Shown here one piece after another: positions 3,667 to 62,343 of a stretch of DNA of 64,000 bases; position 1 is the first letter of the stretch, and every line of letters starts with the position of its first letter. The stretch is from an uncultured Bdellovibrionales bacterium. Its GTDB lineage: Bacteria; Patescibacteriota; Minisyncoccia; Moranbacterales; DUUL01. The position numbers and the translations under genes were made by a program. The stretch is taken from NCBI GenBank assembly GCA_964556685.1, contig CAZKWX010000001.1, forward strand, positions 95,854 to 159,853, written 5' to 3'. The notes under the pieces are model-generated. The model saw only the letters and a list, made by a program, of their open reading frames with translations. It had not been told where the DNA came from and ran no database searches.

Positions 3667-6426
3667 TCAGACTTTTATCCCCCGATGATACGTAACAACG
3701 TATCGCATCAACGGAGACACCAGAAGAATGGTTGCCATGAGACAAAGGAAAATTACCATTTCTTCCAGCCTCCCCAACATGGCCACGGGCATTGCTAGTG
3801 AAAAGCAGAGCCCTACAAACATGAGCATGTTGGTGACGCAGTCACCGCAAACATCAACAGCAGCGTTGACCATTTCTTTTTTCCTAATTACTAGGCCAAA
3901 AAGCTGGCTTTTACTGATGATTACCATTGTTTCATCGCTGAGTGCCAAGGTGCAATACCACCCCAGCATCAATAATGGGAAATCCACCGCAATTGTAACT
4001 GCAATTGGTCCGATCGTGGTATTGGCGATATCCATGGGCATACCGAACGCCCACATCGCTAGATACATTCCAGCCTGCGCCACGATAAATGGCACGGCCG
4101 TCACCACTCCTAACATCAAGAATGATACTGTCCAGGCGCTGTCTGACTTTCTAAAATGTCTTTTGAACGCCACGCCCGCCATCAGGATGACTACCAGTTG
4201 AAGTAAGAAGTTGAACAGAAAGCTGTTCTTCATAATTACTCTGTCGGACCCGACCCAGCGAGCTAAACCGCTAGGAAATCTGTTTGGTAAGGAGAAAATT
4301 CTTTCCACCTCATTTTCGATGAACACCATGACATTTCTCATGTCAGGTGTCGGCTGCTCTCCGGTGGAAACTTTGAGTAGGAAGTCACAGCGTGAGTTTT
4401 CTTCCGTTGGGCGCTCCATGCTTCTGCGAGCCAGATACGATTCTCCCCAACGGGCTTTACTGTAGCTCCAGACCTCATTCCAGGTTTGGATCAGTGTCTC
4501 GCGTATGCGGGTGGCGATGTTAAGATCAGTAAGCTCAATTCCCTCATCCAAGAGATCTTCGATCGCCAGCTCTCTTAAAAAGGAACTGACAACCCGACCT
4601 TCTTCGTAGCCAAAGTCCTGCAGACGTAGAACAAAATCGTCAACGGGAGAGTAGGCTCGAACTACCAGCCTATCTCGCTCAAGGCTATTTCTAAGGTCAA
4701 CGAGCTTGTCGATAACCAACGGATCGCCCAAGTCGATCTTTTCAAGCGTGGGCGTGAAAATATTCGATCCAGGTCGTCCTTCTTTGGCCAGCTCCTGATG
4801 GAGTTTGGCCTGTTGATTATCGGACAGGTAGGGCTCTGGATCATTTTGCTTACCAAGAAAAAACGTTGGCAAGACAAAATAGAAAATCAACGAAACTGCT
4901 GCGATTGACCAACAAACTTTGGTACTATGTCGCCACAGTACCCATCGACTGAAAATCCAGCTGATGGTTCTATTCAAAAAGTTGTTGACCGTTCGTGACC
5001 ACCGTGACAACTTGCCTTGAGATTGCTCAATTTTCTCGTTAGCTCCGCCAATTAAATAATATAGAATCGGCAGAAAGTTACGACACAGCCAGTAGGAAAT
5101 GATTATGGCTGAAATTGCCACTATGCTAACTTGAAAAATTGATTGAGAGCCTTTCAGATGACGGATATTCAACGCGACTGCAAAATCCGCGATGGAAATT
5201 GCAAACACCACTGTCACCATCCAGAGTTTAGATTTGACACTTTCCCATCGTTGCCAGTATTCGCCGGTACTACGACCGAGCTCTTTGGCGTGATGAAAGT
5301 TGAATGAGACACTAGACGCCAACGCAACAATAAACGCTACGCTGGTGTAGACATCTTCATTCGAGTGCCAAATGTAATCATTAGCCAGCCACAGAATTGC
5401 CTGACTAATTGGATCGTCACCGGTTATGGACTGATTAGCCCATTGAATAAAATCACTTAATGCGCCAATTGTTCCACGTGCAAACGCGAAACAACAGAGA
5501 ATGTTTAACCAGACTGCAAATGCTTGACGCCAAGATCCCAACAGAACTGTCAGAAAAAATGGAGCCAGACAAAGCATTATCGTACACATGAGGTAAGCAA
5601 ATAATGCGCAAACCGCTGTGACGATGTAACGTCCTCTCGACCAGCTGTACATTCCGTTGAGCTTGTTCTCCTCGTTTAGGGGGAAGCCTAAGTCGGCTTT
5701 AACCGTAATAACCTCCCCGGAATCAAGCTCTAACACGAAATTATTAAATGATGAATGCAGCTCATACCGAGGTTTGAGGTTTAATTCAAACCAAGTCCAC
5801 AAATTTTTTAGATCGAAACTAAAAACCAGTTCTCGCAAACTCCAGTTAAGGTCATAATCCTCTTCGCCCATAAAAAACAGGCTCAAGTATTGATTAAAAA
5901 CCTTTTCGTCCATCTCTTGATCGGGAATGAACAAGATTTGGGTGTAGATATAGTTTTCACTCCTCTCTGTCTTCACTCGACCAAGCAAATCGTCTCTCAA
6001 ACTACGCTTGGCATAGTTTTCTTCAAACCATTTTACCGGGTCGAAGTTTTCGTCCAGCACCATCTTCGAGGTGATAAAGTATCCCCTCGAATCCATTCGC
6101 GTGGCCAACGACGATATATCAACATTGATCCCACGGTCGTGGAAAAAATAGCGTCCCCGCTTAGCCATATTTTCAATAGCTAATAAGTTATCGCGGGTCA
6201 CTTTTCTCATGGGGATATACTTGGGCACAGCACAATCGCTGTATTCAATCTTAGATATTTCCTTTAGATATCTTTCGTCCTGCGCATAGCGGCTATCGCC
6301 ACGCAGCGCATATTTGACCATGGAAATCACATCCACGGCCCAATTTCCTTCCCAGCCTAAAACATAAAACATAGCCAGAAATATCGTTACCGTACTCGTG
6401 ATCTTCCATTTCAATTTCATTTTCAA
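3667..6426 (-). CDS. RND/MMPL-superfamily exporter (12-TM, two large periplasmic loops)
   Basis: The 919-aa protein has an N-terminal TM, a large soluble loop and a block of 5 TM helices. A second loop and a second TM block follow. This is the classic RND/MMPL topology. Confidence 0.6.
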   Translation of the reverse strand: MKMKLKWKITSTVTIFLAMFYVLGWEGNWAVDVISMVKYALRGDSRYAQDERYLKEISKIEYSDCAVPKYIPMRKVTRDNLLAIENMAKRGRYFFHDRGINVDISSLATRMDSRGYFITSKMVLDENFDPVKWFEENYAKRSLRDDLLGRVKTERSENYIYTQILFIPDQEMDEKVFNQYLSLFFMGEEDYDLNWSLRELVFSFDLKNLWTWFELNLKPRYELHSSFNNFVLELDSGEVITVKADLGFPLNEENKLNGMYSWSRGRYIVTAVCALFAYLMCTIMLCLAPFFLTVLLGSWRQAFAVWLNILCCFAFARGTIGALSDFIQWANQSITGDDPISQAILWLANDYIWHSNEDVYTSVAFIVALASSVSFNFHHAKELGRSTGEYWQRWESVKSKLWMVTVVFAISIADFAVALNIRHLKGSQSIFQVSIVAISAIIISYWLCRNFLPILYYLIGGANEKIEQSQGKLSRWSRTVNNFLNRTISWIFSRWVLWRHSTKVCWSIAAVSLIFYFVLPTFFLGKQNDPEPYLSDNQQAKLHQELAKEGRPGSNIFTPTLEKIDLGDPLVIDKLVDLRNSLERDRLVVRAYSPVDDFVLRLQDFGYEEGRVVSSFLRELAIEDLLDEGIELTDLNIATRIRETLIQTWNEVWSYSKARWGESYLARRSMERPTEENSRCDFLLKVSTGEQPTPDMRNVMVFIENEVERIFSLPNRFPSGLARWVGSDRVIMKNSFLFNFLLQLVVILMAGVAFKRHFRKSDSAWTVSFLMLGVVTAVPFIVAQAGMYLAMWAFGMPMDIANTTIGPIAVTIAVDFPLLMLGWYCTLALSDETMVIISKSQLFGLVIRKKEMVNAAVDVCGDCVTNMLMFVGLCFSLAMPVAMLGRLEEMVIFLCLMATILLVSPLMRYVVTYHRGIKV

Positions 6427-7665: not shown

Positions 7666-7862
7666 ATACGAGTTATCTATAGAGTACGAATTATCTATAG
7701 AGATATCTCTATAGATGGTTGATACGAGTTATTTAAATACCTATTAAAATTGCAATTTAAATGGCCATTTTTCGCTCCACTAACATTCTGACATTCTTGC
7801 TTGCCCCGTGGAGTCATTCCACTGGGGAGAATGTTAGAATGTTGTTTTGAATAGCAACTCCG

Positions 7863-11256: not shown

Positions 11257-11784
11257 TGTTATAAATTACGGATTACAGATCAGATACAAATATACAGATG
11301 TACGAATAATCCTAAACTCTAATAGAAGATTTTTTATTAGTATATTCGTATTTGATTCGTCTCTCGAAGGGAGATCACCCTCCGGGTGATAATTAGTAGA
11401 GAAAAACAAAACCCGTCCCAATAATCCCAAACATATTGTCTGAAATCATCAGGACGAGCTTCTTCTATCTTCAGTACTAGCTACAAGTTACTAGTTACTG
11501 AACTACCCGCGGTTCCACCTGAATTCGTTTTGTTACGTAGCATGCTACGTAACAAACGCTCTTGTTTTTGTTGCTAACTCCGGGGTGCCAATCTCCCATC
11601 AACATTAGCGAAACTAGAAATAAGTATAAATCTTTTTATTTGCATGTCAATAGCAAAATCCACGATTTCAAATCCCCCCTACTTCGTCCCGAATGCTCGG
11701 GACTTCGAAGGGCAGGCCTGAAAAATGTGGCTCATGCTTCGCCTACATTTTTTCCCCCTTTGCTAAAAGGGGAAATTTCCTCTC

Positions 11785-18160: not shown

Positions 18161-18377
18161 ATGAATTATTTTTTGTCATCCCGGACTTGATCCGGGATCC
18201 AGTGACTTTTCATTTCATCTGTTCTCCACCTGAGATATCTACGTAGATATCTCAGTAGCAACTTTATATCTAGTATTTCAATATACTGAATGAAGCGAAA
18301 AAAATCAAATTAAAAACAGGCCGCGAAAGGAAATTTCCTGGACCTGTTCTTTTGGTATTTTAAAAAAAGACCCCGCA

Positions 18378-23287: not shown

Positions 23288-24048
23288 CTTCCTTTCTAGT
23301 TTTAAGATTTATTTTACTTTCTGTTTATTTCATGCATCGCAAACAAAAACTGCCCCTTGGTTCAACTTTTTTTCAAGTAAACCAAAAGGCAGTCCCTGTT
23401 GTTCGAAATCACAAAAATTTTTCTTGAGTCAGAACGCTCAGAACAAATCATTGTTATCTCCTCTAATTCTTATCAATCCCTCCGCCCCTCCAAACCCTCC
23501 AAATCTCAAAAGCGAACTAACCTCCTATTATCTTTCTTACATAAGCCCTAACTGCGTTCTTTCATTATGATATATAATAATTTCTTAAAATGCAAACTAT
23601 TCTTGCTTCTTCGAATACCTCATGTAGGAAACGCACATGTGCGTTTCCTACGCTGACATCTGTCTGCGTCTTCATGATCCGATAATTTTTTAAAAGTTTC
23701 TTTTTATAACAACACAACTAACTCTTCATTGTCAATTATCGGATATACTGAAAAGTCTTTATTTAAAGTAAACTATTAAAGCTAAAATCTTTTACTCTTT
23801 TCCGGGTTTTTATAACGTTTTCAATGTTTTTCAATGTTTAAATTTTCAATTCGAGTTTTTTATAAACAAAAACCATATAAAAAAACAGGCATGTCAATGC
23901 CCATCTATTTTTTCTCCCCCTGCCCACCTGCCTTCCGTAGCTTTCCTGGCCTTCATAGTTTTAGCGAAGTGGACAGCGAAGGAAGGAGGGGGAGATACAG
24001 AGGGGGTGGGAGCTTTTCCCCATCGCCCCTTTGACCTCAGTGCTCTTG

Positions 24049-35671: not shown

Positions 35672-36513
35672 TTAAATTAAGTTAATCGGACTTCCTTTTA
35701 TCCACGCCTCAATGTTCTTAATCATCATATCATTTGATTTCCTTAGTTCCGCTTCTGAATTCCATGCAATATGCGGAGTAACCAATATTTTAGGATGACT
35801 TATCAATCTTTTATAATTTTCTCCTCTTGTATCCCCAACAATATCGTCCGATGTATCGTCTGCGGCGCCAATCAATATTCTTTTGTCCAAGGCTCCCTTC
35901 AGTGATTCGAGATCATAAGTTTTGTTTCTCGCTGCTGAAATAAAAAAGGCTCCTTTCTTTAACGAATCAAAGAAACTCTTACCTAGTAGGTTGACGGTCG
36001 TCGGATTTGCACTTAAACAATTCGCTATAATGTCAGCATCTTTAGTGGTCGTAGTTAAATCATCACCACGTTTAAAGAAGACGACTTCCATCCCCAAGCT
36101 TTTACATATTTTTCCGAGTCGTTTGCCAATATTTCCAGCTCCTAGAATAGCTATCTTCTTGTTGTATAAGCCACTTGTTGTCTTCAATATTTTTTCCTTT
36201 GGAAGATCCTTTGCTCTATTAAGCTCAGATAATTTTCTAAAGTACATTAAGAGCATGCCAACAAACCATTCCGCAACAGCTTCTTTGTTACATCCTGGTG
36301 AGTTAGATATGGAAATGTTTCTTTTTTTCAGTTTATCTTTATCTAAAAAATCAACACCCACTAAGGGAAGTGAAATAAATACGTTCTCTAATTCATATAG
36401 CTTGTTTGATTTTAGACCGAACTATAATAAATAACATTTCCTAGTGAATCTAGGCGTTTAATTTGGTCTTTGTAAAATTTCAGATTTGTAGCTACTACTA
36501 TTTTTGGTTTCAT
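35672..36513 (-). pseudogene. D-isomer-specific 2-hydroxyacid dehydrogenase, disrupted (N-terminal 33-aa fragment out of frame, ~40 aa missing)
   Basis: The C-terminal NAD-binding/catalytic part is intact (GAGNIGKRLGK..., LVTPHIAWNSEAE) but starts at GTG after an in-frame TAG. The N-terminal fragment MKPKIVVATNLKFYKDQIKRLDSLGNVIYYSSV* lies at 36412..36513 in another frame. Confidence 0.5.
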
Positions 36514-36630
36514 AATTGTGTGATCCAGTCCTTTTTTATATTTATCCATCTCGTACGTACCCACGTATATACGTCCGTATATACGTTTCGAGACACTTAT
36601 CTTCCTTTTTACGGTTTACTTTTAAATGTC

Positions 36631-36725
36631 TACTACTCCTAAACAACCACACTTACCAACCTCCCCTTCACATAAATCACTTTCTCGGGTTTTTTACCGT
36701 CCAGACTTTGGATTCTTAAATCTCT
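36631..36725 (-). repeat. degenerate copy 1 of the leuS 3' terminus
   Basis: Hand translation gives ...GKKPEKVIYVKGRLVSVVV*. The genuine LeuRS C-terminus is KKPKKVIYVKGRLVNIVT*. Confidence 0.7.
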
Positions 36726-37200
36726 CAAAAATCAAATGTGTCGAATTGCTACCGAAGGCATACTTTCGAAACAAGCTGTCTTCCAAAGATGCTAGCTCCA
36801 GATTGTTCTTTGTTTCTCCCCTAATCCATAGATTGTGACGAGTATGGTCTACTAAATAAGCTTCCGTTATCGCCCTGAATTTTCCAAAGTCAATCTTATC
36901 TGGTCTTGAATATTCTACTAACCACCAAAATGGTAGGTTATTTCCAATATCGTCGCCAACAAAATGGAGCACCGTTCTTATGATGTGTAGTTCAAAATTC
37001 TTTTTGTCTATTTTTCCATTGAATTTAGTTACGATGTTGTTCATCGCTGATTCCCAAGTACTCTTATGTGCATTAATCTTAGCCAAACCATCGAAAGCAC
37101 CTGTTGTCGTATCGCAATATTCACATTCATCTAGCTTGGTTAATTCTCCAGCAACCATCATATTCGGATTACTTTCGTTGATCTGTACAAAATATTTCAT
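36694..37200 (-). CDS. hypothetical protein located between the duplicated leuS 3'-end copies
   Basis: 168-aa ORF with no recognisable motif. Confidence 0.4.
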   Translation of the reverse strand: MKYFVQINESNPNMMVAGELTKLDECEYCDTTTGAFDGLAKINAHKSTWESAMNNIVTKFNGKIDKKNFELHIIRTVLHFVGDDIGNNLPFWWLVEYSRPDKIDFGKFRAITEAYLVDHTRHNLWIRGETKNNLELASLEDSLFRKYAFGSNSTHLIFERFKNPKSGR

Positions 37201-37243
37201 ATTTACCTTTTTGTTATTTATAAATGCTCCTTAATTTTATTAA

Positions 37244-37340
37244 TTCTTTTATACAACTACACTCACCAACCTCCCTTTTACATAAATCACCTTCTTTGGC
37301 TTCTTACTGCCTAAATATTTTTGAATTTTCTCACTTCCAA
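37244..37340 (-). repeat. degenerate copy 2 of the leuS 3' terminus
   Basis: Hand translation gives ...GSEKIQKYLGSKKPKKVIYVKGRLVSVVV*. Confidence 0.7.
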
Positions 37341-37354
37341 GGGCAACCCGCACA

Positions 37355-37382
37355 CACTCTCATATATGCATATATGAGAGTG
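37355..37382. repeat. 28-bp perfect palindrome cactctcatatatgcatatatgagagtg (second copy at 50669..50694)
   Basis: Verified base by base. It lies directly between the leuS stop and leuS-3' copy 2. Confidence 0.85.
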
Positions 37383-37388
37383 CTCGTG

Positions 37389-40300
37389 TTAAGTTACAAT
37401 GTTAACTAGCCGTCCTTTCACATAAATCACTTTCTTTGGTTTCTTTCTTCCTAAGTGTCTTTGTACTTTTTCGCTTCCCAAAGCAATCTTCTCTGCTTCT
37501 TTCTCTGAAATATCTTTTGAAACCATCACTTTATCACGCACTTTGCCATTGACCTGAATCACCAATTCAATTTCATCTTCAATTACTTTCTTGGGATCAA
37601 ACTTGGGCCATCTTTGTTCAAAGATTGAAGTATGCTTCTGGGCTTTCTTATTTTCCCCCTTTAGCAAAGGGGGTGTCCCGGCCTTGCCGGGACGGAGGAT
37701 TTGAAGTTCAGCCCAAAATTCTTCCGCTATATGAGGTGCCATTGGGGCTATAACCAATGCTAACGTCTCTTTTACCTTTTTAGCTTGAACTTTGTTAAAA
37801 TCATCTTTGTGATCCCGCATCCAGTTGACATATTCCATAATCCTCGCCACTGCTGTGTTGAAAGAAAGTTTTTCAATATCTTCTCCAACAACTTTGATTG
37901 TTTTGTCAATCATAGACATGTTCAATGGCTTTGTCTTGTTTTGTAGATGACGCAGATCTGCGTCATCTACAGACTTTGTATCGTCTGCTCCTACCTCATG
38001 AAAAACTTTCCACATTCGATTGAGGAACTTGTGCATTCCTTCAATGCCACTGTCTCGCCAGTCACCACCTTGGGCAAAGTCTCCTACAAATCGAAGATAG
38101 AGCCGTACAGTGTCAGCACCATACTTTTTGATCGCATCATCGGGGTTAACCACATTGCCTTTCGATTTGCTCATCTTAGTCCCGTCTTTGGTAATCAAAC
38201 CATGTCCAAAAAATCTCTTGTAAGGCTCGTCAAAATCAATGTAACCCAAGTCTTTCAAAACCATGGTCATGAAACGAGAATAAAGAAGATGTAAGACTGT
38301 GTGCTCCTTGCCACCAATGTAACTGTCCACCGGCAGCCATTTCTTGGTTCGCTTTCTGTCAAAAATCACCTCATTAAATTCAGTCGATGGATAGCGGAAA
38401 AAATACCAAGCGCTGTCGAGGAACGGATCCGAGACATCGGTTTCTCGCTCGGCGTCTCCTTCACAAACTGGGCATTTAACTTTGACAAACTTTTCATTTT
38501 TGGCCAAAGGCCCCTTGCCTTTCCCTTCCGGCAAAAAATCTTCCATCGGTGGTAATTTCACCGGAAGATCTTCCTCGGGAACCGAGACTGCCACTGGCTC
38601 AATACTCTCTTGGATTTTCTCTAGCAATTCTGGAAACTTCTTATTCTTTGGATTATCATCTACACAAAAATGCTTCCTGCCTTTAAGTTTTATTAATTTT
38701 GCACCCAACTTATTGCTAATCATCTCTGCACTTTCAACTCGATGAGTTTTGTCATTTGAGATAAAAATGGTCAGACTCTCAATCTGGTTTTTCAAACTCG
38801 AGTCAATTTTAAAATCAACAAAGCCTTTTATTCGCTCTTCTCTCTTAACTAATTTTTTAGATGGAGCATTTAAAATAACATTTCTAGCTTTTCTCCCTGT
38901 TTCTGATAGCCATTTTAATATAAAAGCTCCTCCGGCACTTGTTCCAACTAAAATTGTATCTTCATCAACATCAAAATTATCAATAGTTTCTTTCCAGTCT
39001 TCATAGTCCGGCTTCCAGTCTGTCGGCATAATTGGATTTATAACTTCAAATCCGTTCTTTTTCAGCTCTTTTTCAAGCCAGCTATGCCAATGTCGAACAT
39101 TCGGTTCAACATAATCTTTGTCGTGAGCTTTCGTCCGACCTGAAGAACCATGGATCATTAAAACTTTAATCCTTTTCAGCCCCTCCTTTTTCCTCCCCTT
39201 ACTAAGGGGAGGATTTAGGTGGGGTCCAAGCGCACAGCGCTTGCACCAGACAATCGGAATCGGCGGCCCCCAATATCTTTGCCGTGAAATGCACCAGTCA
39301 CGTAATTTGTAATTAACCGTCCATTTTCCATTTCCCTTTTCGACAGAAAAATCACCAATTGCTTTTCGAGCTTTCTTGGTTGGCATATCATCGAATTTCC
39401 CAGCATTCATCATCAGTCCCTCATTAACATAAGCCTTTTTCATTTTCTTTGGATCAAGCTTCTTTTCTCCCTTGGGATAAATCACGGGCACCAAATCTAG
39501 CTTATATTTTTTGGCAAACTCAAAATCTCTTTGATCGTGAGTGGGAGTGCACTTTACAATTCCCGTGCCATATTCATAGACAGCGAAATTAGCAGTATAA
39601 ATTGGCATTTCCCGGCCATTGAGATGATTGATCGCATACCGACCTGTAAAAAATCCTTCTTTCTTCTTTTCGACGTTGGCTGGGTCTTTGACTTTTTCTT
39701 CAATCACCTTCCGGCAGAAATCTTTGGCTCCTTTTTCATATTTTGTGCCTTGGACTAATTCATCAACAACAGGATGTTCTGGAGCAACAACCATAAAAGT
39801 AGCTCCCCAAGTGGTGTGTGGCCAGGTGGTAAAAGTTTTCAATTTTAATTTTATATCTTTGACTTTCCATTCTTCTTCCAAACCTTTACTTTTTCCAATC
39901 CAATTCCTCTGATTGGTTTTCACATCATCCGGCCAGTCGATCCAATCTAAATTCTTTAATAGCTGATCGGCATATTTAGTAATAGCAAAAAACCATTGCT
40001 TTAATTCTTTTTTCTCAACAACGCTGTCGCAGCGTTCGCACTTTCCTGCAATCACCTGTTCATCAGACAAAACTGTTTTACATGAAGGACACCAGTTCAC
40101 CTTGGCTTCTTTTTGATAGGCTAGTCCCTTCTTGAACATCTGCAGAAAAATCCATTGAGTCCACTTATAATAATTCGGTTTGTAAGTCTCCACTGTCCGC
40201 GACCAATCATACATGTTTCCGATTTCATGCAATTGCCGATAGAAATTTTTCTCACTCCTTTTAGAAACATCGCTAATGTGTTCGCCAATTTTCATGGCAT

Positions 40301-40583
40301 AGTTCTCACTGTGAATGCCAAATCCATCCAAACCAATCGGCTCAAAAACGTCATAGCCTTCTAACTTCTTGAAACGCCCATAGACATCGGCTCCGGTGAA
40401 GGCATACATGTTCCCCACATGCAATCCTTCTGCGGAGGGATAGGGGAACATCATCAGATTGTGAAATGGCTTCTTGGCTTTGTCCAAATCGGGTCGAAAA
40501 ACACCTGAGTCTTTCCAGGATTTTTGCCATTTTTTTTCGATAGATTTGAAATTATATTTCGGAATTGGTTGCTTTTTTGTCAT
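37389..40583 (-). CDS. leuS: leucine--tRNA ligase with inserted alpha/beta-hydrolase domain
   Basis: HIGH-type motif (GLHVGNMYAF), KMSKSKGN, and the CP1/editing and anticodon domains. It is 1064 aa, longer than typical bacterial LeuRS. About 210 extra residues sit between ...VWCKRC and VSVPEEDLPVKLP. Confidence 0.9.
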   Translation of the reverse strand: MTKKQPIPKYNFKSIEKKWQKSWKDSGVFRPDLDKAKKPFHNLMMFPYPSAEGLHVGNMYAFTGADVYGRFKKLEGYDVFEPIGLDGFGIHSENYAMKIGEHISDVSKRSEKNFYRQLHEIGNMYDWSRTVETYKPNYYKWTQWIFLQMFKKGLAYQKEAKVNWCPSCKTVLSDEQVIAGKCERCDSVVEKKELKQWFFAITKYADQLLKNLDWIDWPDDVKTNQRNWIGKSKGLEEEWKVKDIKLKLKTFTTWPHTTWGATFMVVAPEHPVVDELVQGTKYEKGAKDFCRKVIEEKVKDPANVEKKKEGFFTGRYAINHLNGREMPIYTANFAVYEYGTGIVKCTPTHDQRDFEFAKKYKLDLVPVIYPKGEKKLDPKKMKKAYVNEGLMMNAGKFDDMPTKKARKAIGDFSVEKGNGKWTVNYKLRDWCISRQRYWGPPIPIVWCKRCALGPHLNPPLSKGRKKEGLKRIKVLMIHGSSGRTKAHDKDYVEPNVRHWHSWLEKELKKNGFEVINPIMPTDWKPDYEDWKETIDNFDVDEDTILVGTSAGGAFILKWLSETGRKARNVILNAPSKKLVKREERIKGFVDFKIDSSLKNQIESLTIFISNDKTHRVESAEMISNKLGAKLIKLKGRKHFCVDDNPKNKKFPELLEKIQESIEPVAVSVPEEDLPVKLPPMEDFLPEGKGKGPLAKNEKFVKVKCPVCEGDAERETDVSDPFLDSAWYFFRYPSTEFNEVIFDRKRTKKWLPVDSYIGGKEHTVLHLLYSRFMTMVLKDLGYIDFDEPYKRFFGHGLITKDGTKMSKSKGNVVNPDDAIKKYGADTVRLYLRFVGDFAQGGDWRDSGIEGMHKFLNRMWKVFHEVGADDTKSVDDADLRHLQNKTKPLNMSMIDKTIKVVGEDIEKLSFNTAVARIMEYVNWMRDHKDDFNKVQAKKVKETLALVIAPMAPHIAEEFWAELQILRPGKAGTPPLLKGENKKAQKHTSIFEQRWPKFDPKKVIEDEIELVIQVNGKVRDKVMVSKDISEKEAEKIALGSEKVQRHLGRKKPKKVIYVKGRLVNIVT

Positions 40584-41520: not shown

Positions 41521-41640
41521 ATTTGCTTCCCTTGGTGCAAGGGGAGATTAAGAGGGGTTAGCTTGAATAGCAATAGAGACCGGCCAATTCACTTAACTCC
41601 CCTTAGTCCCCTCTTTCCAAAAGAGGGGAAATGAATAAGT
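41521..41640. repeat. short copy of the multi-hairpin element family
   Basis: cttcccttggtgcaaggggag...gaggggttagcttgaatagcaatagagaccggccaattcacttaactcccc...cccctctttccaaaagaggggaaa. It aligns to 17341..17500 with the central gaattc hairpin deleted. Confidence 0.7.
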
Positions 41641-45991: not shown

Positions 45992-46396
45992 TTATTCCTT
46001 AGCATATGAGTTGATCACGCGTTTTGGAATTAGGTATTTTTGATGAAAATTGATAAGCAATCCTAATTTCTTATTTGAGAATCTTAAGTATCTTTTTATT
46101 TGGTTGTAATCTTCTCTGACGAATCCTCTTTTTGCTTTCACTTCCAGAATAATTTGGTCTTCTATAATAAAATCTATTCTATTACTATTGTTTTTGATAT
46201 ATTCACTTTCCGTCTCGACTATTACTTCTTTTTCGTAGAACATCCCTTTTTCAATGAGAAGTTTTTCCAAGGCATCACAATATTGTTTTTCCCGACAATA
46301 GTTGCCTAATTCATTGTGAACCTCAAAAAGCATGCCTGTTATTTCGTATGACAATTCTGGATAAATTATTTTTCCTTCGTTATCTTTGATTCGCAC
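45992..46396 (-). CDS. GxxExxY-family protein (PD-(D/E)XK nuclease-like)
   Basis: SYEITGMLFEVHNELGNYCREKQYCDAL matches the GxxExxY signature. Confidence 0.6.
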   Translation of the reverse strand: MRIKDNEGKIIYPELSYEITGMLFEVHNELGNYCREKQYCDALEKLLIEKGMFYEKEVIVETESEYIKNNSNRIDFIIEDQIILEVKAKRGFVREDYNQIKRYLRFSNKKLGLLINFHQKYLIPKRVINSYAKE

Positions 46397-48345: not shown

Positions 48346-48557
48346 TCCTTCTTTATTTCCCCCTTTAGCAAAGGGGGAAGAAGAATTGAGACGAATCATG
48401 TTACCGAAAGGTAACGTGATGAGTCCAATTCTTCAGGGGGATTTGAATTTATAGTACTGAAAATCCCTCTGAAAAATATGGCTTATTACATTCGCCTATA
48501 TTTTCCTTCTCCCTTTTTCAAAGGAAGAAACACAATTAAATTCATGATTCGTAAAAC

Positions 48558-49394: not shown

Positions 49395-50918
49395 ATGCAG
49401 AAACTCAACCAATATAAAATCTATCTATTTTATCTCTTCCTTTTCCTCATTCCGTTCAATTTGCGGATAATTTTTAATTTCGATCGAATCAACAATCTCG
49501 AAGGTTTTCGCGAACACATCACACACTCTTTCTACGCATTCGATTTGATTTTTATTCTGTTATTGCTAGTTGTTCTGCTTGATTGGCTGCAGAATAAACG
49601 ACCAAAGACTTCAACATCAAAAAAGATTTTCACTAACCCCCTTTTCTATTTCGTTATAACGACCGTTATAACGTCGGTTTTGGCCCTCAACCAGACAGTG
49701 GCTTTCCAACAAACTTTGAGGATCGCACAAGCAGTCGTTTTCTTTTTGATAGCTAATAGCATTCTTTCAAGTTCCCCCTCTTGGGGCAAAAGTGGAGAAT
49801 TGCGAATGAGTAATTCTCGGGGAGTTAAGAAACCCGGATGGGATTCAAAACCATTTTATATTTCAATCTTAATAATTTTTCTTAGTGGAACTCTCCAATC
49901 ACTTATTGCTCTTTGCCAGTTCATTTTTCAAAAATCAGTCGGACTGAAAATTCTGGGGGAAAGCGTCATTGCACCAGAAATTTTGGGCGTGGCTAAATTT
50001 GAAATCCTGGGAGAAAAACTGATCCGCGCTTATGGCACTTTTCCTCATCCCAATCTTTTAGCTGCGTTTTTGTTACTGTCGTTGGCCTGTGGAGCTTTCT
50101 TGTTGATTTATAAAAAATCTTCTCCCTTTTACAAGAAAAAATATAAATATGTCAGCGATCTGCTTTCCAAAAATTATTTCTATACAATTGGAACTGTAAT
50201 GATTTTATTCGGTGTCTGCCTGACCTATTCTCGCAGTGTAATCTTGGCTACTGTCGTTTTTATTATTTTATTGTGGATTGGACATCGCAAAAAAGTAGGC
50301 GATGTCTATCGAGGCTGGTGCAAACAACTGCGTATTCATTCTATTTTCCAAACAGCCTTAGCAGTGTTGGCAATTTTTGCAGTTACTTTTTTACTTTATA
50401 ATATTTTTGCTCCCCGTCTTTGTTTTTCTAATTGTTTTAATGACAATTCCATTGAACTGCGAGGAAGATATAGCGCTGCCGCAGCAGAAATTATTGTTCA
50501 AAATCCACTCACCGGAGTGGGACCAGGAAATTTTGTCATTGCCCTAGCTGATTCTTCTGTCGGTGCAACGCTTCAACCTTGGGAATTTCAGCCAGTTCAT
50601 AATTTGTATCTGCTCATTGCTTCAGAAATCGGTCTCGTCGGCCTGGTATTTCTCCTAATCTTTGTTTCCACTCTCATATATGCATATATGAGAGTAAAGT
50701 TGGGGCGCACTTTGAATCTGCAATCATTGGTTGGAAATCCTTTTTTTATTTTACTTTTGGCTTTCCTTTTTCTGGGATTAATTGATCATTATTTCTGGAC
50801 TCTTCCTCAAGGACTACTCATCTTTTGGCTTAGCCTTGCGTTTTTTGATATGTCCAGTAAGATAAAAGTTGAACCCAAACAGAGGAGGTCACATGCCCTA
50901 CGTACCGAAATATACTAG
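49395..50918 (+). CDS. O-antigen ligase/polymerase-like integral membrane protein
   Basis: About 12 TM helices with a periplasmic-loop YSRSVILAT motif typical of the Wzy_C/O-antigen ligase family. Confidence 0.5.
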   Translation: MQKLNQYKIYLFYLFLFLIPFNLRIIFNFDRINNLEGFREHITHSFYAFDLIFILLLLVVLLDWLQNKRPKTSTSKKIFTNPLFYFVITTVITSVLALNQTVAFQQTLRIAQAVVFFLIANSILSSSPSWGKSGELRMSNSRGVKKPGWDSKPFYISILIIFLSGTLQSLIALCQFIFQKSVGLKILGESVIAPEILGVAKFEILGEKLIRAYGTFPHPNLLAAFLLLSLACGAFLLIYKKSSPFYKKKYKYVSDLLSKNYFYTIGTVMILFGVCLTYSRSVILATVVFIILLWIGHRKKVGDVYRGWCKQLRIHSIFQTALAVLAIFAVTFLLYNIFAPRLCFSNCFNDNSIELRGRYSAAAAEIIVQNPLTGVGPGNFVIALADSSVGATLQPWEFQPVHNLYLLIASEIGLVGLVFLLIFVSTLIYAYMRVKLGRTLNLQSLVGNPFFILLLAFLFLGLIDHYFWTLPQGLLIFWLSLAFFDMSSKIKVEPKQRRSHALRTEIY

Positions 50919-51219: not shown

Positions 51220-53952
51220 ATGAAGAAAGAACTACCAAAAGCATACGAGCCCAAGAAATATGAGGATGAGATTTATGAGAAATGGGAAAAGTCAGGAATG
51301 TTTAACCCTGACAGTTTAGACGTGGATGAAAAGGCCGAAAGCTATTCAATTGTCATGCCCCCACCCAATGTGACTGGCACGCTTCACTTGGGTCACGCTG
51401 AAATGCTGGTTGTGGAAGATATTCTGATTCGTTATCACCGCATGCTGGGTCATCGAACTTTGTGGACCCCGGGAACAGATCACGCTGCTATTGCCACCCA
51501 AACAAAAGTGGAAAAAATTCTCAAAGAAGAAGGCACTGATCGACACAAACTGGGAAGAAAAAAATTTCTGGATAGAGTAGAGAAATATGCTGAGGAATCG
51601 CACGATACCATCGTGGGGCAAGTGAAAAAAATGGGTTCTAGTTGTGATTGGTCGCGTGAGGCCTACACTTTGGATGAAACACGCCATAAAGCGGTCTATT
51701 CTGTTTTCAAGATGATGTATGACGATGGTTTGATCTATCGTGGTGAACGAATTGTTAATTGGTGCCCTCGCTGCCATTCAACCTTGGCTGATGATGAAGT
51801 AGAATACATCGAAGAAAATGGAAAGCTTTATTGGATCAAGTATGGACCATTCACTTTGGCCACTGCCCGACCAGAAACCAAGTTGGGCGATACGGCTGTG
51901 GCTGTTCATCCTGACGATGAGAGATATAAGGATATGGTGGAAAAGGAATACGACATTCCTGGAGTGCTGGGAGAATTTAAAATTAAAGTCGTGGCTGACA
52001 AATCAGTTGATCCTGAATTTGGATCCGGCGCTATTAAAGTAACCCCTGCTCACAGTTTGGTTGATAATGAAATCGCCCAGAGACATGATCTGCCATCCAA
52101 AAAAATTATCGATGAAGATGGAAAGATGATGGAAAATTGTGAAAAATATGCTGGTCTAACTACCAAAGAAGCACGTAAAAAAATTGTGGCTGACATGAAG
52201 AAGATGGGCTTGATTGATCACATAGACGAAAATTATTCCCACAATATCGCTGTTTGCTATCGCTGCGACACGCCGATTGAGCCGCTTCCTTCTGAACAAT
52301 GGTTTATTGATGTGAATAAGCCGCTACCCAAAAAGAAGCTAAGTTTCCTTGGAAACTTAGCTTCTAAAGACTCAAAAACTATCAAAGAAATTTGTTTGGA
52401 AGTTGTTCGAGAAGGAAAAATTAAAATTATTCCAGAAAGGTTTGAAAAACAATATTTCCATTGGATGGAAAATCTGCGTGATTGGTGCATCTCACGCCAG
52501 ATTTGGTATGGACATCAAATTCCTGTTTGGTACAAAAATGACGAAGCTTATGTTGGCGTTAAAGCGCCAAGAGAAGACGGTTGGACTCAAGATCCGGACA
52601 CGCTTGACACTTGGTTTTCTTCCGGGCTTTGGACTTTCTCAACTCTAGCCAACAAGCTCGATCAAATTAGAATTGAGGACGGGAAACTGGTCATTGATAG
52701 TAAGGACTATAGTCAGTACCACCCAACTGATGTGCTTGAAACAGGTTATGATATTCTTTTCTTCTGGGTAGCTCGTATGATCATCATGACCACCTATGCT
52801 GTGGGTGATCTTCCTTTCAAAGATGTTTACCTTCATGGCTTGGTGCTTGACGAACATGGAAAGAAAATGAGCAAATCGAAGGGCAACGTCATCAATCCAC
52901 TGGACATGTGTGAAAAGTATGGCACCGATGCCACTCGCCTATCATTGGTCGTTGGTGCGGCACCTGGAAAAGATTTTCGATTGTCTGAAGAAAAAATTGC
53001 TGGCTTTCGAAATTTTTCTAATAAATTATGGAATATATCTCGATATATTCTTGAAAATGGTAGAAAAAATGCCGAGGTTTCACCGCGAGTACTCGCGGTG
53101 AAACCTCAAGTAAAGTTTCAGAAATTATCAGATAAATTGACTTTGGCTGATCGATGGATTCTAAAAAGAATTCACGAGTTAATTCATGAATTAAATATAG
53201 ATTTAAATAAGTATCAATTTTCTGCTGCTGGTGAAAAGTTGCGTGATTTTACTTGGAACGACTTGGCTGATTGGTATCTGGAAGTGAGTAAATTTGAGGA
53301 AAACAAGGAAACCAAAGCAGCGATCTTGAATATGATTCTAAAAGATTTGCTCAAACTTTGGCATCCTTTCATTCCATTTGTCACTGAGAAGATTTGGGAG
53401 GAAATGGGAGAGGAAAAAATGTTGCTAGTCTCTAATTGGCCGAAATATAGTGAACGCAGATCTGCGTTCACTACAAATGATACAACTGATTTCAAGACTG
53501 TTCAAAAAATCATCATTGTAATTCGCAACGCTCGGGCTCAATATCATATAGAACCAAAACAAAAAATTGATGTGGTGATCTATACTGGAAAAAATGTAGA
53601 GCTCATCAAATCTCAGGAAAATATCATCAGAAATCTTCGAACTGGAATTGAAAACCTCAAGATTGAAGAAAAAGGAGAAAAGCTACCCAAATCTTTTTCC
53701 GATTCTGTTAATGGAATTGAAATTCACATTCCGCTTAAGGATGTCATTGATATTGACAAAGAAAAAGCCCGTTTAGAAAAAGAAATCCAAGCCGCAGAAA
53801 AATATTCTGCTAGCCTGGAAAAAAAATTTAAAAACAAATCTTTTGTCGACAAGGCACCAAAAAAAATTGTTGATCAGGAAAAAGAAAAATTGGCTGAGAA
53901 AAATGACCAAATAGAAAAACTAAAATCATATCTTGATGGACTCTCAACCTAG
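51220..53952 (+). CDS. valS: valine--tRNA ligase
   Basis: PPPNVTGTLHLGHA, KMSKSKGN and a C-terminal coiled coil. 910 aa. Confidence 0.92.
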   Translation: MKKELPKAYEPKKYEDEIYEKWEKSGMFNPDSLDVDEKAESYSIVMPPPNVTGTLHLGHAEMLVVEDILIRYHRMLGHRTLWTPGTDHAAIATQTKVEKILKEEGTDRHKLGRKKFLDRVEKYAEESHDTIVGQVKKMGSSCDWSREAYTLDETRHKAVYSVFKMMYDDGLIYRGERIVNWCPRCHSTLADDEVEYIEENGKLYWIKYGPFTLATARPETKLGDTAVAVHPDDERYKDMVEKEYDIPGVLGEFKIKVVADKSVDPEFGSGAIKVTPAHSLVDNEIAQRHDLPSKKIIDEDGKMMENCEKYAGLTTKEARKKIVADMKKMGLIDHIDENYSHNIAVCYRCDTPIEPLPSEQWFIDVNKPLPKKKLSFLGNLASKDSKTIKEICLEVVREGKIKIIPERFEKQYFHWMENLRDWCISRQIWYGHQIPVWYKNDEAYVGVKAPREDGWTQDPDTLDTWFSSGLWTFSTLANKLDQIRIEDGKLVIDSKDYSQYHPTDVLETGYDILFFWVARMIIMTTYAVGDLPFKDVYLHGLVLDEHGKKMSKSKGNVINPLDMCEKYGTDATRLSLVVGAAPGKDFRLSEEKIAGFRNFSNKLWNISRYILENGRKNAEVSPRVLAVKPQVKFQKLSDKLTLADRWILKRIHELIHELNIDLNKYQFSAAGEKLRDFTWNDLADWYLEVSKFEENKETKAAILNMILKDLLKLWHPFIPFVTEKIWEEMGEEKMLLVSNWPKYSERRSAFTTNDTTDFKTVQKIIIVIRNARAQYHIEPKQKIDVVIYTGKNVELIKSQENIIRNLRTGIENLKIEEKGEKLPKSFSDSVNGIEIHIPLKDVIDIDKEKARLEKEIQAAEKYSASLEKKFKNKSFVDKAPKKIVDQEKEKLAEKNDQIEKLKSYLDGLST

Positions 53953-57441: not shown

Positions 57442-57843
57442 ATGGAAGAAAAATCAAAAAATAAAAATAAAATAAGAAGTTATAAAGATCTAGAAGTATT
57501 CCAGAAGTCTTATAAGTTATCAATTATAATAAGCACGAAGCTGATTCCTAAGCTTCCGAAAGAAGAAAAATTTATTCTTTCTGATCAACTAAGAAGATCT
57601 TGTAAGGCCGTTCCTCGATTAATTGCAGAAGGCTTTGGAAAGCGACATCAAAAGAAAGGTTTTCAGAAATATTTGGACGATGCGATATCAGAAAATAACG
57701 AAACTGTAGTCAGCTTATCTCAAGTGAGAGATATTTATTATGAATAGATTAATCCTCATTCAGTTGCAAAATTAATAGAAGAATATGAGATTATCGGAAA
57801 ACGGCTTTATCGACTAAAAGAAGCTTGGAATAAATTTTCTTAG
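57442..57843 (+). pseudogene. four-helix-bundle protein (23S rRNA IVS-protein family) interrupted by an in-frame TAG at 57745-57747
   Basis: The N-terminus SYKDLEVFQKSYKLSI...LSDQLRRSCKAVPRLIAEGFGKR is family-typical. After the TAG the same frame continues INPHSVAKLIEEYEIIGKRLYRLKEAWNKFS*, the normal C-terminal helix. Confidence 0.5.
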
Positions 57844-59172: not shown

Positions 59173-59223
59173 GTTTTTGAGAATTCACGAATTAATTCGT
59201 GAATTAAATATATAAAATATAAT

Positions 59224-61526: not shown

Positions 61527-62343
61527 ATAATTTATGAGGATCGGACTCTCCCAGATGTTTGATAAAAAACTTTATAGCACTTTTAATGTGAATGCGAGAA
61601 TATTTGTTAAACAAAACTGAACTGACTGCATTCTTGCTCTTGCTTTGTTTTCCATGATAGTGGAAAACTTTCACATTAGGACAATAAACGACTTCGAAGT
61701 CGTTTTTCCAAAAGCGCCAACACCAATCTACGTCTTCAAAATACATAAAATACCGCTCGTCGAACCTGCCCACTTTTTTTGCTGCCTTGCGACTGGTCAT
61801 CATGGCTGAACCCATGATCCAATCCGTCTCAATCTTGTCTACTTGCTTTTGTTTGTCCTTCATCATAAATCGATCCAAATGTTTTTTGGCAAAAGATAAG
61901 TTTCCTAGAAAAGTTCGGCGATAGACAATGGTCATGGGAGAATAGAACCGAAAACATGACTGCTGAATTGAATTATCAAAATTTATCAATTGGGGACCAA
62001 CAATTCCAACCTGGGGATTTCTTTCGAGATAGTCGATCAATTTTTCGACACTTCCTTCTTTCACAACAATGTCTGAATTGATCACAAAGTAGTAATCTCC
62101 TTTGGCTTTGTTCAAACACTGATTGACTAATTTTCCAAAACCCACATTTTTTTTATTGGGTAGAAAAGTGATCCGGCTAAATTCCTCTCGCATCAAATCA
62201 TATGTTTCTTCTTTTGTTTCACCGTCAGCTACAATGATTTCATATTCAAGGTTTTTAACGTATTTTCTAATGGAACGGATGCAGAGTCTGAGCACTGCTG
62301 GATTTCTATATGAAGTAATAAGAATCGAGAGTTTGGGATTCAT
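61489..62343 (-). CDS. glycosyltransferase family 2
   Basis: LSILITSYRNPAVLRLCIRSI...DGETKEE GT-A N-terminus with a DxD region. Confidence 0.75.
   Translation of the reverse strand: MNPKLSILITSYRNPAVLRLCIRSIRKYVKNLEYEIIVADGETKEETYDLMREEFSRITFLPNKKNVGFGKLVNQCLNKAKGDYYFVINSDIVVKEGSVEKLIDYLERNPQVGIVGPQLINFDNSIQQSCFRFYSPMTIVYRRTFLGNLSFAKKHLDRFMMKDKQKQVDKIETDWIMGSAMMTSRKAAKKVGRFDERYFMYFEDVDWCWRFWKNDFEVVYCPNVKVFHYHGKQSKSKNAVSSVLFNKYSRIHIKSAIKFFIKHLGESDPHKLYDQNKQKEDVRE

Follow-up and report, generated by a model that had tools for sequence, protein, structure and literature searches.

Decayed derivatives of ICEs (integrative and conjugative elements) and IMEs (integrative and mobilizable elements) are known from streptococci as cis-mobilizable elements (CIMEs) and microCIMEs; their targets include fda and tRNA-Lys, and among them remnants of very small size, lacking an integrase and lying between att sites, have been described (PMC7563491). 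Gene ends are also displaced in the rhs and cdiA arrays with orphan tips, for which acquisition via recombination with laterally acquired DNA has been proposed (PMC2935791, PMC3150448), and homology-facilitated illegitimate recombination is on record for naturally transformable bacteria and for E. coli (PMC3240628). We analysed a 64-kb stretch of DNA (contig CAZKWX010000001.1; hereafter the window) from an uncultivated bacterium of the Candidate Phyla Radiation (CPR), or Patescibacteria, in which leuS, the gene for leucyl-tRNA synthetase (LeuRS), is followed by two further copies of its own 3' end on either side of a 168-aa open reading frame (ORF168). We know of no natural scars that carry serial remnants of the end of an essential gene, and in the literature we found no report of leuS as an integration target, nor of palindromic insertions in CPR genes.

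With CIMEs and microCIMEs the leuS locus shares direct repeats of the 3' end of the target, a replacement end that keeps the target gene whole, inserts that are small and lack an integrase, and the tandem accretion of successive elements at one site. It differs from them in its target gene and in its host, a Patescibacteria genome; no related integrase-bearing element is known for the leuS locus, the leuS repeats are saturated at synonymous sites and have a common core of 11 nt, and the cargo gene is truncated at its junction. The rhs and cdiA arrays are alike in that behind a full-length gene stands a tandem series of displaced 3' fragments, equally oriented and each formerly the functional end, and in that a small gene follows the tip. 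However, in Rhs and CdiA the tips are hypervariable toxins accompanied by immunity genes, whereas the leuS tips all encode the same conserved housekeeping C-terminus with no new function, and the leuS cargo is a predicted RAM-domain protein. Homology-facilitated illegitimate recombination, as it accompanies transformation or conjugation, resembles what we describe in its single homologous anchor within a conserved gene, its arbitrary far joint, its short foreign inserts and in needing no recombinase, but it is known from laboratory selections, and the clustering of joints at leuS is not expected under it. The leuS scar belongs to a known class of integration or recombination event and is new in its target gene and lineage.

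By itself the leuS scar is a modest finding. It would mean that the 3' end of an essential aminoacyl-tRNA synthetase gene in the CPR/Patescibacteria has been rewritten by foreign DNA at least twice, with the gene intact each time, and that one of these events brought in a new gene. As no recombinase is visible, the locus bears on how genes are acquired by small symbiotic genomes with few recognisable mobile elements.

Displaced leuS ends and the gene between them

The resident end of leuS (tail A) and the two displaced tails (C2 and C3) lie in the same orientation, and the leuS ORF is intact, its product matching the Pfam families tRNA-synt_1, LeuRS editing domain and Anticodon_1 and also, in an insertion, Ser_hydrolase (Table 1). 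The original prediction had reported LeuRS C-terminal copies behind the leuS stop, bracketing the 168-aa ORF, and these are present, although the positions given for them (37244-37340 and 36631-36725) had to be corrected to those of C2 and C3 in Table 1; over all features the coordinates moved by 5-40 nt. The displaced tips measure 96 nt (C2, with the peptide terminus ...KKPKKVIYVKGRLVSVVV of the GRLVSVVV-stop type) and 75 nt (C3, peptide terminus ...KKPEKVIYVKGRLVSVVV); C3 lacks one codon and is shorter on its 5' side. The tail starts are spaced by 140 and 610 nt.

When aligned, the copies proved to be true homologues of the leuS terminus at the nucleotide level, as the original prediction had supposed. 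C2 and the resident tail are identical at 24/31 amino acids and at 77% of nucleotides over 82 nt, and the window copies as a whole are ~72-77% identical at the nucleotide level, with a longest shared run of 11 nt. A tblastn search of the 2.5 kb downstream with the resident tail recovered C2 with E = 1.7e-15 and C3 with E = 6e-8. A 20-nt pattern spanning the shared core had three matches in the 64 kb, which are the three tails, against a chance expectation of 0.01. The duplication is confined to leuS, in that no other gene with a duplicated end was found among the ~98 window ORFs tested.

The arrangement is not an artefact of one assembler, because the independently assembled Logan contig L002 was 100% identical to the window over 5174 nt (37394-32221), a stretch that takes in the final 6 nt of leuS together with the palindrome, C2, ORF168, C3 and the adjacent pseudogene. 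The leuS-bearing Logan contig and L002 have 30 nt in common, of which 6 nt close leuS and 24 nt follow it, and all contigs found to encode the exact LeuRS had the same arrangement.

Table 1. Positions of the leuS tails, the cargo gene, palindromes and other features (window coordinates, except for the last row).
Feature	Position	Strand	Remarks
leuS (leucyl-tRNA synthetase, 1064 aa), target gene	37389-40583	minus	ORF and LeuRS Pfam domains; stop TAA at 37389-37391
Tail A, resident functional end	37389-37484	minus	last 31 codons and stop (ALGSEKVQRHLGRKKPKKVIYVKGRLVNIVT, stop)
Spacer between leuS stop and C2	37345-37388		44 nt; holds the perfect 28-bp palindrome
28-bp perfect palindrome	37355-37382		6 nt after leuS stop, ~10 nt before C2
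C2, displaced leuS tail	37249-37344	minus	31 codons and stop, intact frame (ALGSEKIQKYLGSKKPKKVIYVKGRLVSVVV, stop)
ORF168 leader	37201-37248	minus	48 nt; starts directly after C2 stop
ORF168, cargo	36694-37200	minus	168 aa; between C2 and C3
C3, displaced leuS tail	36639-36713	minus	24 codons and stop (IQSLDGKKPEKVIYVKGRLVSVVV, stop)
Tandem mini-palindrome	36563-36586		ACGTATATACG-NN-CGTATATACGT; 11-nt arms, 2-nt spacer; downstream of C3
D-2-hydroxyacid dehydrogenase pseudogene	35672-36564	minus	frameshifted, N-terminally shortened; two frames, 36412-36564 and 35672-36361
Perfect palindromes, 20-34 bp, spacer 0-2 nt	1418-1449, 7693-7716, 11529-11556, 18230-18255, 23624-23651, 37355-37382, 37942-37971, 50670-50695, 52334-52365, 53074-53107, 53448-53473, 59182-59205, 61686-61705		
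G+C-rich hairpins	39191-39213, ~37652-37670, 41607-41629, 48357-48379		CCCC(T)TTT-NNN-AAAGGGG
PD-(D/E)XK nuclease gene	45992-46396		PF13366
23S rRNA-intervening-sequence protein gene	57442-57747		PF05635
Tail repeat in L152 (87 nt)	2829-2915 and 3888-3974		sharp 5' edge

The last 20 nt of ORF168, stop codon included, lie inside C3, and its homology to the gene on the Logan contig L001 stops at ...AGATTTAAGA, the final five codons and the stop coming from C3 in another frame. Because the gene's own stop was lost there, the ORF168/C3 junction is imprecise and there is no clean cassette boundary. Among 5.8e9 proteins ORF168 had one close homologue (68% identity), the L001 gene, and the 48-nt leader showed weak similarity to the leader of that homologue; no leuS lies near it on L001. 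An exhaustive profile search added eight distant relatives, and the surroundings of several of them appear to be archaeal: Aenigmatarchaeota is the label of one record, and a PcrB gene is present in another. The composition of the ORF168 region is not anomalous (GC 0.37 vs 0.40). The distribution of its relatives suggests that ORF168 is a sporadically distributed, apparently acquired and foreign-looking gene.

Several comparisons bear on its nature. PF01037, the Lrp/AsnC ligand-binding domain, was matched by 7/9 family members (best E = 7e-7); ORF168 itself scored E = 0.056, which falls below the Pfam cut-off. A profile search of the PDB recovered AsnC/FL11 proteins at E = 0.03-0.1. The AlphaFold2 model (predicted local distance difference test score, pLDDT, 83) consists of two ferredoxin-like beta-alpha-beta-beta-alpha-beta units, for which the best Foldseek match was NirDL, a siroheme decarboxylase with a double Lrp/AsnC-like make-up (E = 2e-5, TM 0.71 normalised to the query), with further fold matches to feast/famine regulatory proteins (FFRP/AsnC) and dimeric alpha+beta barrels. 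The two ferredoxin-like units and the PF01037 matches across the family are the likeness to RAM-domain proteins and to NirDL/AhbAB; full-length Lrp/AsnC regulators have an N-terminal helix-turn-helix (HTH), whereas no HTH match was found in ORF168, both halves of which are RAM-like. On the strength of this model and these profiles, ORF168 is predicted to be a tandem Lrp/AsnC-type RAM-domain protein of a small ligand-binding or regulatory type. The original prediction had called it an unrelated ORF bracketed by the leuS ends; as a RAM-domain protein it would not be a mobility gene. Identities as a recombinase, nuclease, phage, defence or plasmid gene were ruled out, as no match was found in PHROGs or PADLOC, nor by tblastn in phage or plasmid collections.

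As to the surroundings of these relatives, the close homologue lies on L001 1-4209 (Logan SRR22388020, 4.2 kb), between an HTH_17 (excisionase-like) gene and genes for an S-adenosylmethionine (SAM) methyltransferase and a TIR-domain protein, with a DUF6119 protein encoded upstream, a context that resembles a defence island or mobile island. Two of the distant homologues in archaeal-looking surroundings (L084 3526-5771 and L087 1112-3346) have as neighbours an Lrp/AsnC-type regulator and a number of genes of similar size that match no Pfam family and may be paralogues.

Divergence of the tails and comparison with other leuS loci

We counted the proportions of synonymous (pS) and nonsynonymous (pN) differences between the tails by the Nei-Gojobori method. 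Between A and C2 (31 codons), pS was 0.91 and pN 0.12, with differences by codon position of 7/3/18; between C2 and C3 (18 codons) the values were 0.73 and 0.02 (1/0/9), and between A and C3 (18 codons) 0.82 and 0.13 (5/2/9). The frames and stops of C2 and C3 are intact, and their peptides resemble normal LeuRS ends. Because synonymous sites are saturated and replacement changes are few, each tail appears to have been a working leuS end, evolving under purifying selection in a separate lineage until it was displaced. Saturated synonymous sites together with intact frames therefore exclude a simple tandem duplication in situ, and the same pair of observations provides a simple general test that distinguishes imported ends from local duplications.

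These comparisons indicate that the replacement ends were probably imported with incoming DNA, and they support at least two such events, unless a single imported block already held two tails. In this respect the original prediction, of one or two events at the leuS terminus that carried in a replacement copy, was partly supported: the differences between the copies are almost only synonymous, and the gene that they flank is apparently acquired. C2 and C3 are identical at 46/57 nt and both end in SVVV, whereas A matches either of them at 40-41/57 nt; the closest full-length homologues (P0003 and P0004) also terminate in GRLVSVVV. Tail A has its best homologue in P0013 (77%) and the preceding 60 aa theirs in P0003 (70%), a weak signal.

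In a comparison that took in GTDB representative genomes with a LeuRS, a protein search and those contigs whose encoded LeuRS is the very same, no relative came closer than 58% amino acid identity. L128, which is syntenic on the upstream side (its sigma factor is 62% identical), has unrelated downstream genes and no duplicated tail. When 153 other leuS loci were scanned, each with its own last 32 aa, the same architecture appeared at one of them, L152 (JGI contig Ga0126305_10008989), where leuS has 66% GC. Its tail repeat is identical at 54/56 positions in the 5' part and at 21/31 in the 3' part, where the changes are mostly synonymous, and the DNA between the copies encodes a Gp49/HigB-like toxin and an HTH_3 antitoxin. 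This pattern of repeats is classical att-like. The three independent repeat boundaries, two in the window and one in L152, lie at codon -31, -28 or -25, counted from the stop. Since L152 comes from a high-GC bacterium that is unrelated, DNA may have been inserted repeatedly at the leuS terminus. Farther downstream, L152 also has a UPF0175 antitoxin-like gene. A weak extra tail in L004 was set aside as a chance similarity inside a 231-aa ORF (Sua5/YrdC-like by eye).

The body of LeuRS varies in its affinities along its length. Residues 250-400 of the window protein, in the region of the editing domain, are 74-82% identical to P0012/P0014 and 34-39% identical to P0003/P0004/L128. The catalytic core behaves the other way round, and for residues 50-200 and 650-850 the identity to P0003/P0004/L128 is 76-96%. 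The protein is mosaic, and leuS segments have therefore been exchanged between diverged lineages in this clade. The inserted serine-hydrolase domain of the window LeuRS (PF06821) spans aa 496-643; in precomputed Pfam lists, many Patescibacteria LeuRS homologues carry PF06821, alpha/beta-hydrolase or NUDIX domains.

Proposed joining of incoming DNA to leuS

We propose the following history. The original leuS would have ended in C3, the oldest and probably native tail. A first incoming DNA would have carried its own functional tail, C2, followed by the 48-nt leader and ORF168, and recombined inside the last ~80-100 nt of leuS, so that leuS stayed intact and its old tail was displaced downstream. 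A second event would have brought tail A and a few nucleotides behind it, leaving the ~44 nt now found between A and C2; the 28-bp palindrome may have arrived with tail A or been added later. The joining may have been the work of a recombinase whose gene is absent, or has since been lost, from the vicinity and which directed integration to a short core at the VIYV codons (GTGATTTATGT), and the remnants would then be non-autonomous and decayed, comparable to CIMEs and microCIMEs. Taken in full, with site-specific joining included, this serial displacement of the leuS terminus is a tentative account to which we give somewhat less than an even chance. Site-directed joining is slightly favoured because the boundaries cluster, because the L152 repeat is att-like, and because the tails share an 11-mer: GTGATTTATGT is the only identical stretch common to all three tails, its three synonymous positions included. 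The leuS tail core reads AARGTGATTTATGTRAARGG.

A number of observations weigh against this account. Among the ~55 ORFs scanned across the window, none matched a Pfam domain of an integrase, a recombinase or a transposase, so that the search for an integrase suggested with the original prediction came back empty there, and none was found on the L152 contig either. Conservation of the 11-mer is only marginally unusual, since it codes for the conserved VIYV block, and the same 11-mer was present in 3/21 other leuS genes encoding VIYV. On viral contigs in IMG/VR there was no confirmed leuS-tail fragment that might be an attP. In L152 the gene-proximal tail is GC3-rich (rich in G+C at third codon positions) like the resident gene, and the distal tail is GC3-poor, the opposite of what is expected of attL and attR. 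The second "element" is only ~44 nt long. ORF168 takes its stop from C3, which leaves no room for an attP arm and looks like an imprecise join. As judged from its segments, leuS is visibly mosaic, and homologous import of a segment needs no integrase. Finally, the order of events, the role of the core and the involvement of a recombinase are what we infer, and the order is not proven. Matches to the leuS tail in GenBank "phage" and plasmid records were rejected as attP candidates; they are apparently whole leuS genes on host-derived or chromid records, annotated as leuS wherever annotation exists.

Several of these points are better accommodated by an import that required no recombinase, in which homology-facilitated illegitimate recombination would have acted twice: transforming DNA from a diverged relative, anchored within leuS by homologous recombination, would have run past the donor stop into donor downstream DNA, and its far end would have been joined illegitimately in the last ~100 nt of the recipient's leuS, leaving the recipient tail as a remnant. 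The patchwork LeuRS indicates that foreign leuS segments do recombine in, though none of its breakpoints could be assigned to the events at the terminus, the loss of ORF168's own stop at the junction is expected of an arbitrary end, and such an import needs no identity between the copies, of which little is seen. It gives the better account of three things, namely the truncation of the cargo, the integrase missing from the window and the tiny size of the second insert (44 nt, against about 555 nt for the other), and overall it explains the data nearly as well as site-specific integration. Under it, however, joints should scatter, and the two here and the one in L152 fall within 8 codons, an objection that persistence and limits of detection may partly explain; nor does it predict the long, near-identical 5' block of L152. 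Microhomology of the length sought at such joints (3-10 nt) could amount to at most about 4 nt at the ORF168/C3 joint. We consider this route rather unlikely, and the integration of decayed CIME-like elements at a specific site is slightly favoured over it. A displacement of the C-terminus of the Rhs type, in which circular DNAs carrying leuS homology, a new tail and cargo enter by a single RecA-dependent crossover and may later be released via the repeats, is improbable. A circular intermediate has been proposed for rhs loci (PMC2935791), and the architecture matches theirs, with a full gene and then displaced tips that each have core homology before them and cargo after; L152, with its 56-nt near-identical block followed by divergent tails, also fits. 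Against this, the window copies have low identity and a longest common run of 11 nt, which would not suffice for recombination of the RecA type unless later changes have obscured the homology; the tails, far from being polymorphic, encode the same conserved LeuRS end throughout, and no circular form was observed.

The remaining alternatives dispense with repeated import or with import altogether. If A were native and a foreign block already holding C2, ORF168 and C3 had been inserted behind leuS, one event would suffice in this lineage, and the greater similarity of C2 and C3 to each other (46/57 nt, SVVV) than to A would be accounted for. This would merely shift the tail duplication into the donor, however, and the exact landing behind leuS would go unexplained unless homology or a specific site guided the block; moreover, the closest full-length LeuRS ends in SVVV like C2 and C3, which favours those tails as the older, native type. 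We rate such a single import a shade lower than the Rhs-type displacement. Tandem duplication in place, by slippage or unequal crossing-over, with decay and a later insertion of ORF168, would suit tandem copies in the same orientation and an A-C2 unit of only 140 nt, but decay would hit the codon positions equally and soon break the frame, whereas differences of 7/3/18 and 1/0/9, intact frames and a pN/pS far below 1 were found; this explanation is effectively refuted. Hardly any credence is left for an assembly artefact that concatenated strain variants of the leuS end: the sequence is metagenome-derived and the Logan contigs break at the palindrome, but L002 agrees with the window throughout its 5174 nt and overlaps the leuS contig, and the synonymous saturation is far beyond strain-level variation.

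A bolder reading would make the last ~30 codons of leuS a landing pad, shared across phyla, for small integrase-less cassettes that bring a functional tail of their own, spread through recombination with the resident tail and are released again as transferable circles by excision between the repeats. We regard this as a long shot. The cargo could be functionally tied to the site, in that a RAM (amino-acid-sensing) protein lies beside a leucyl-tRNA synthetase gene. If true, such a landing pad would amount to Rhs tip displacement transferred to a housekeeping gene, and would be a route of single-gene acquisition for genome-reduced Patescibacteria poor in mobile genetic elements.

Palindromes and neighbouring genes

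The 28-bp palindrome lies between leuS and C2, where the original prediction had placed it, but it could not be upheld as a scar of integration, because it is one of a window-wide class and recurs, with 27/28 positions the same and unrelated flanks, at 50669-50696. Folded as RNA it reaches -25.2 kcal/mol (z = -4.4), and no T-run follows. With arms of >=12 nt and a spacer of <=2 nt as the threshold, perfect palindromes number 12 in the window, whereas 1.67 Mb of other loci gave 1.26 per 64 kb and Markov shuffles ~1; the enrichment is about 10-fold. About half of the window palindromes are intragenic, and those in LeuRS (aa 871) and ValRS (aa 372, 619 and 743) each sit where the gene, compared with its homologues, has an in-frame insertion. 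Sub-families have the common centres ACGCAGATCTGCGT, GAGATATCTC and CTCATATATGCATATATGAG. Candidate origins for the class are mobile mini-palindromes, fold-back repair products and protein binding sites. Logan contigs of the same organism (L002 and L169) end or begin at the 28-bp palindrome (window 37370-37394), and it is apparently at perfect palindromes that such de Bruijn graph assemblies break.

The cgtatatacgt repeats of the original prediction are also present, although they lie not at 36520-36570 but in the mini-palindrome downstream of C3 (Table 1), which may be the hairpin that once followed the original leuS end. Promoter, terminator and Rfam scans of the region returned nothing relevant. 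Two of the G+C-rich hairpins lie inside LeuRS: that at ~37652 falls in a lineage-specific insertion (...TPPLLKGENKK...) and its sequence recurs in a YgjP-like gene at 48357, and that at 39191 encodes ...PPLSKGRKKEG.... Among other sequences, L114 has a 47-nt perfect palindrome (4665-4711) just upstream of the leuS C-terminal match, presumably within leuS, and L021 (a 6934-nt contig, GenBank JAHJJO010000063.1) is a perfect fold-back with 3467-nt arms and an assembly artefact.

The 2-hydroxyacid dehydrogenase pseudogene is frameshifted and shortened, as had been predicted, but nothing ties it to the leuS events, and its inclusion in an integration scar was not sustained. Its pieces match PF02826 and PF00389, in the stitched protein the match to PF00389 does not begin before profile position 64, and the N-terminal domain is ~24 aa shorter than that of the L165 homologue; both of its ORFs are also present in L002. 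Elsewhere, the window encodes a 23S rRNA-intervening-sequence protein and a PD-(D/E)XK nuclease (Table 1).

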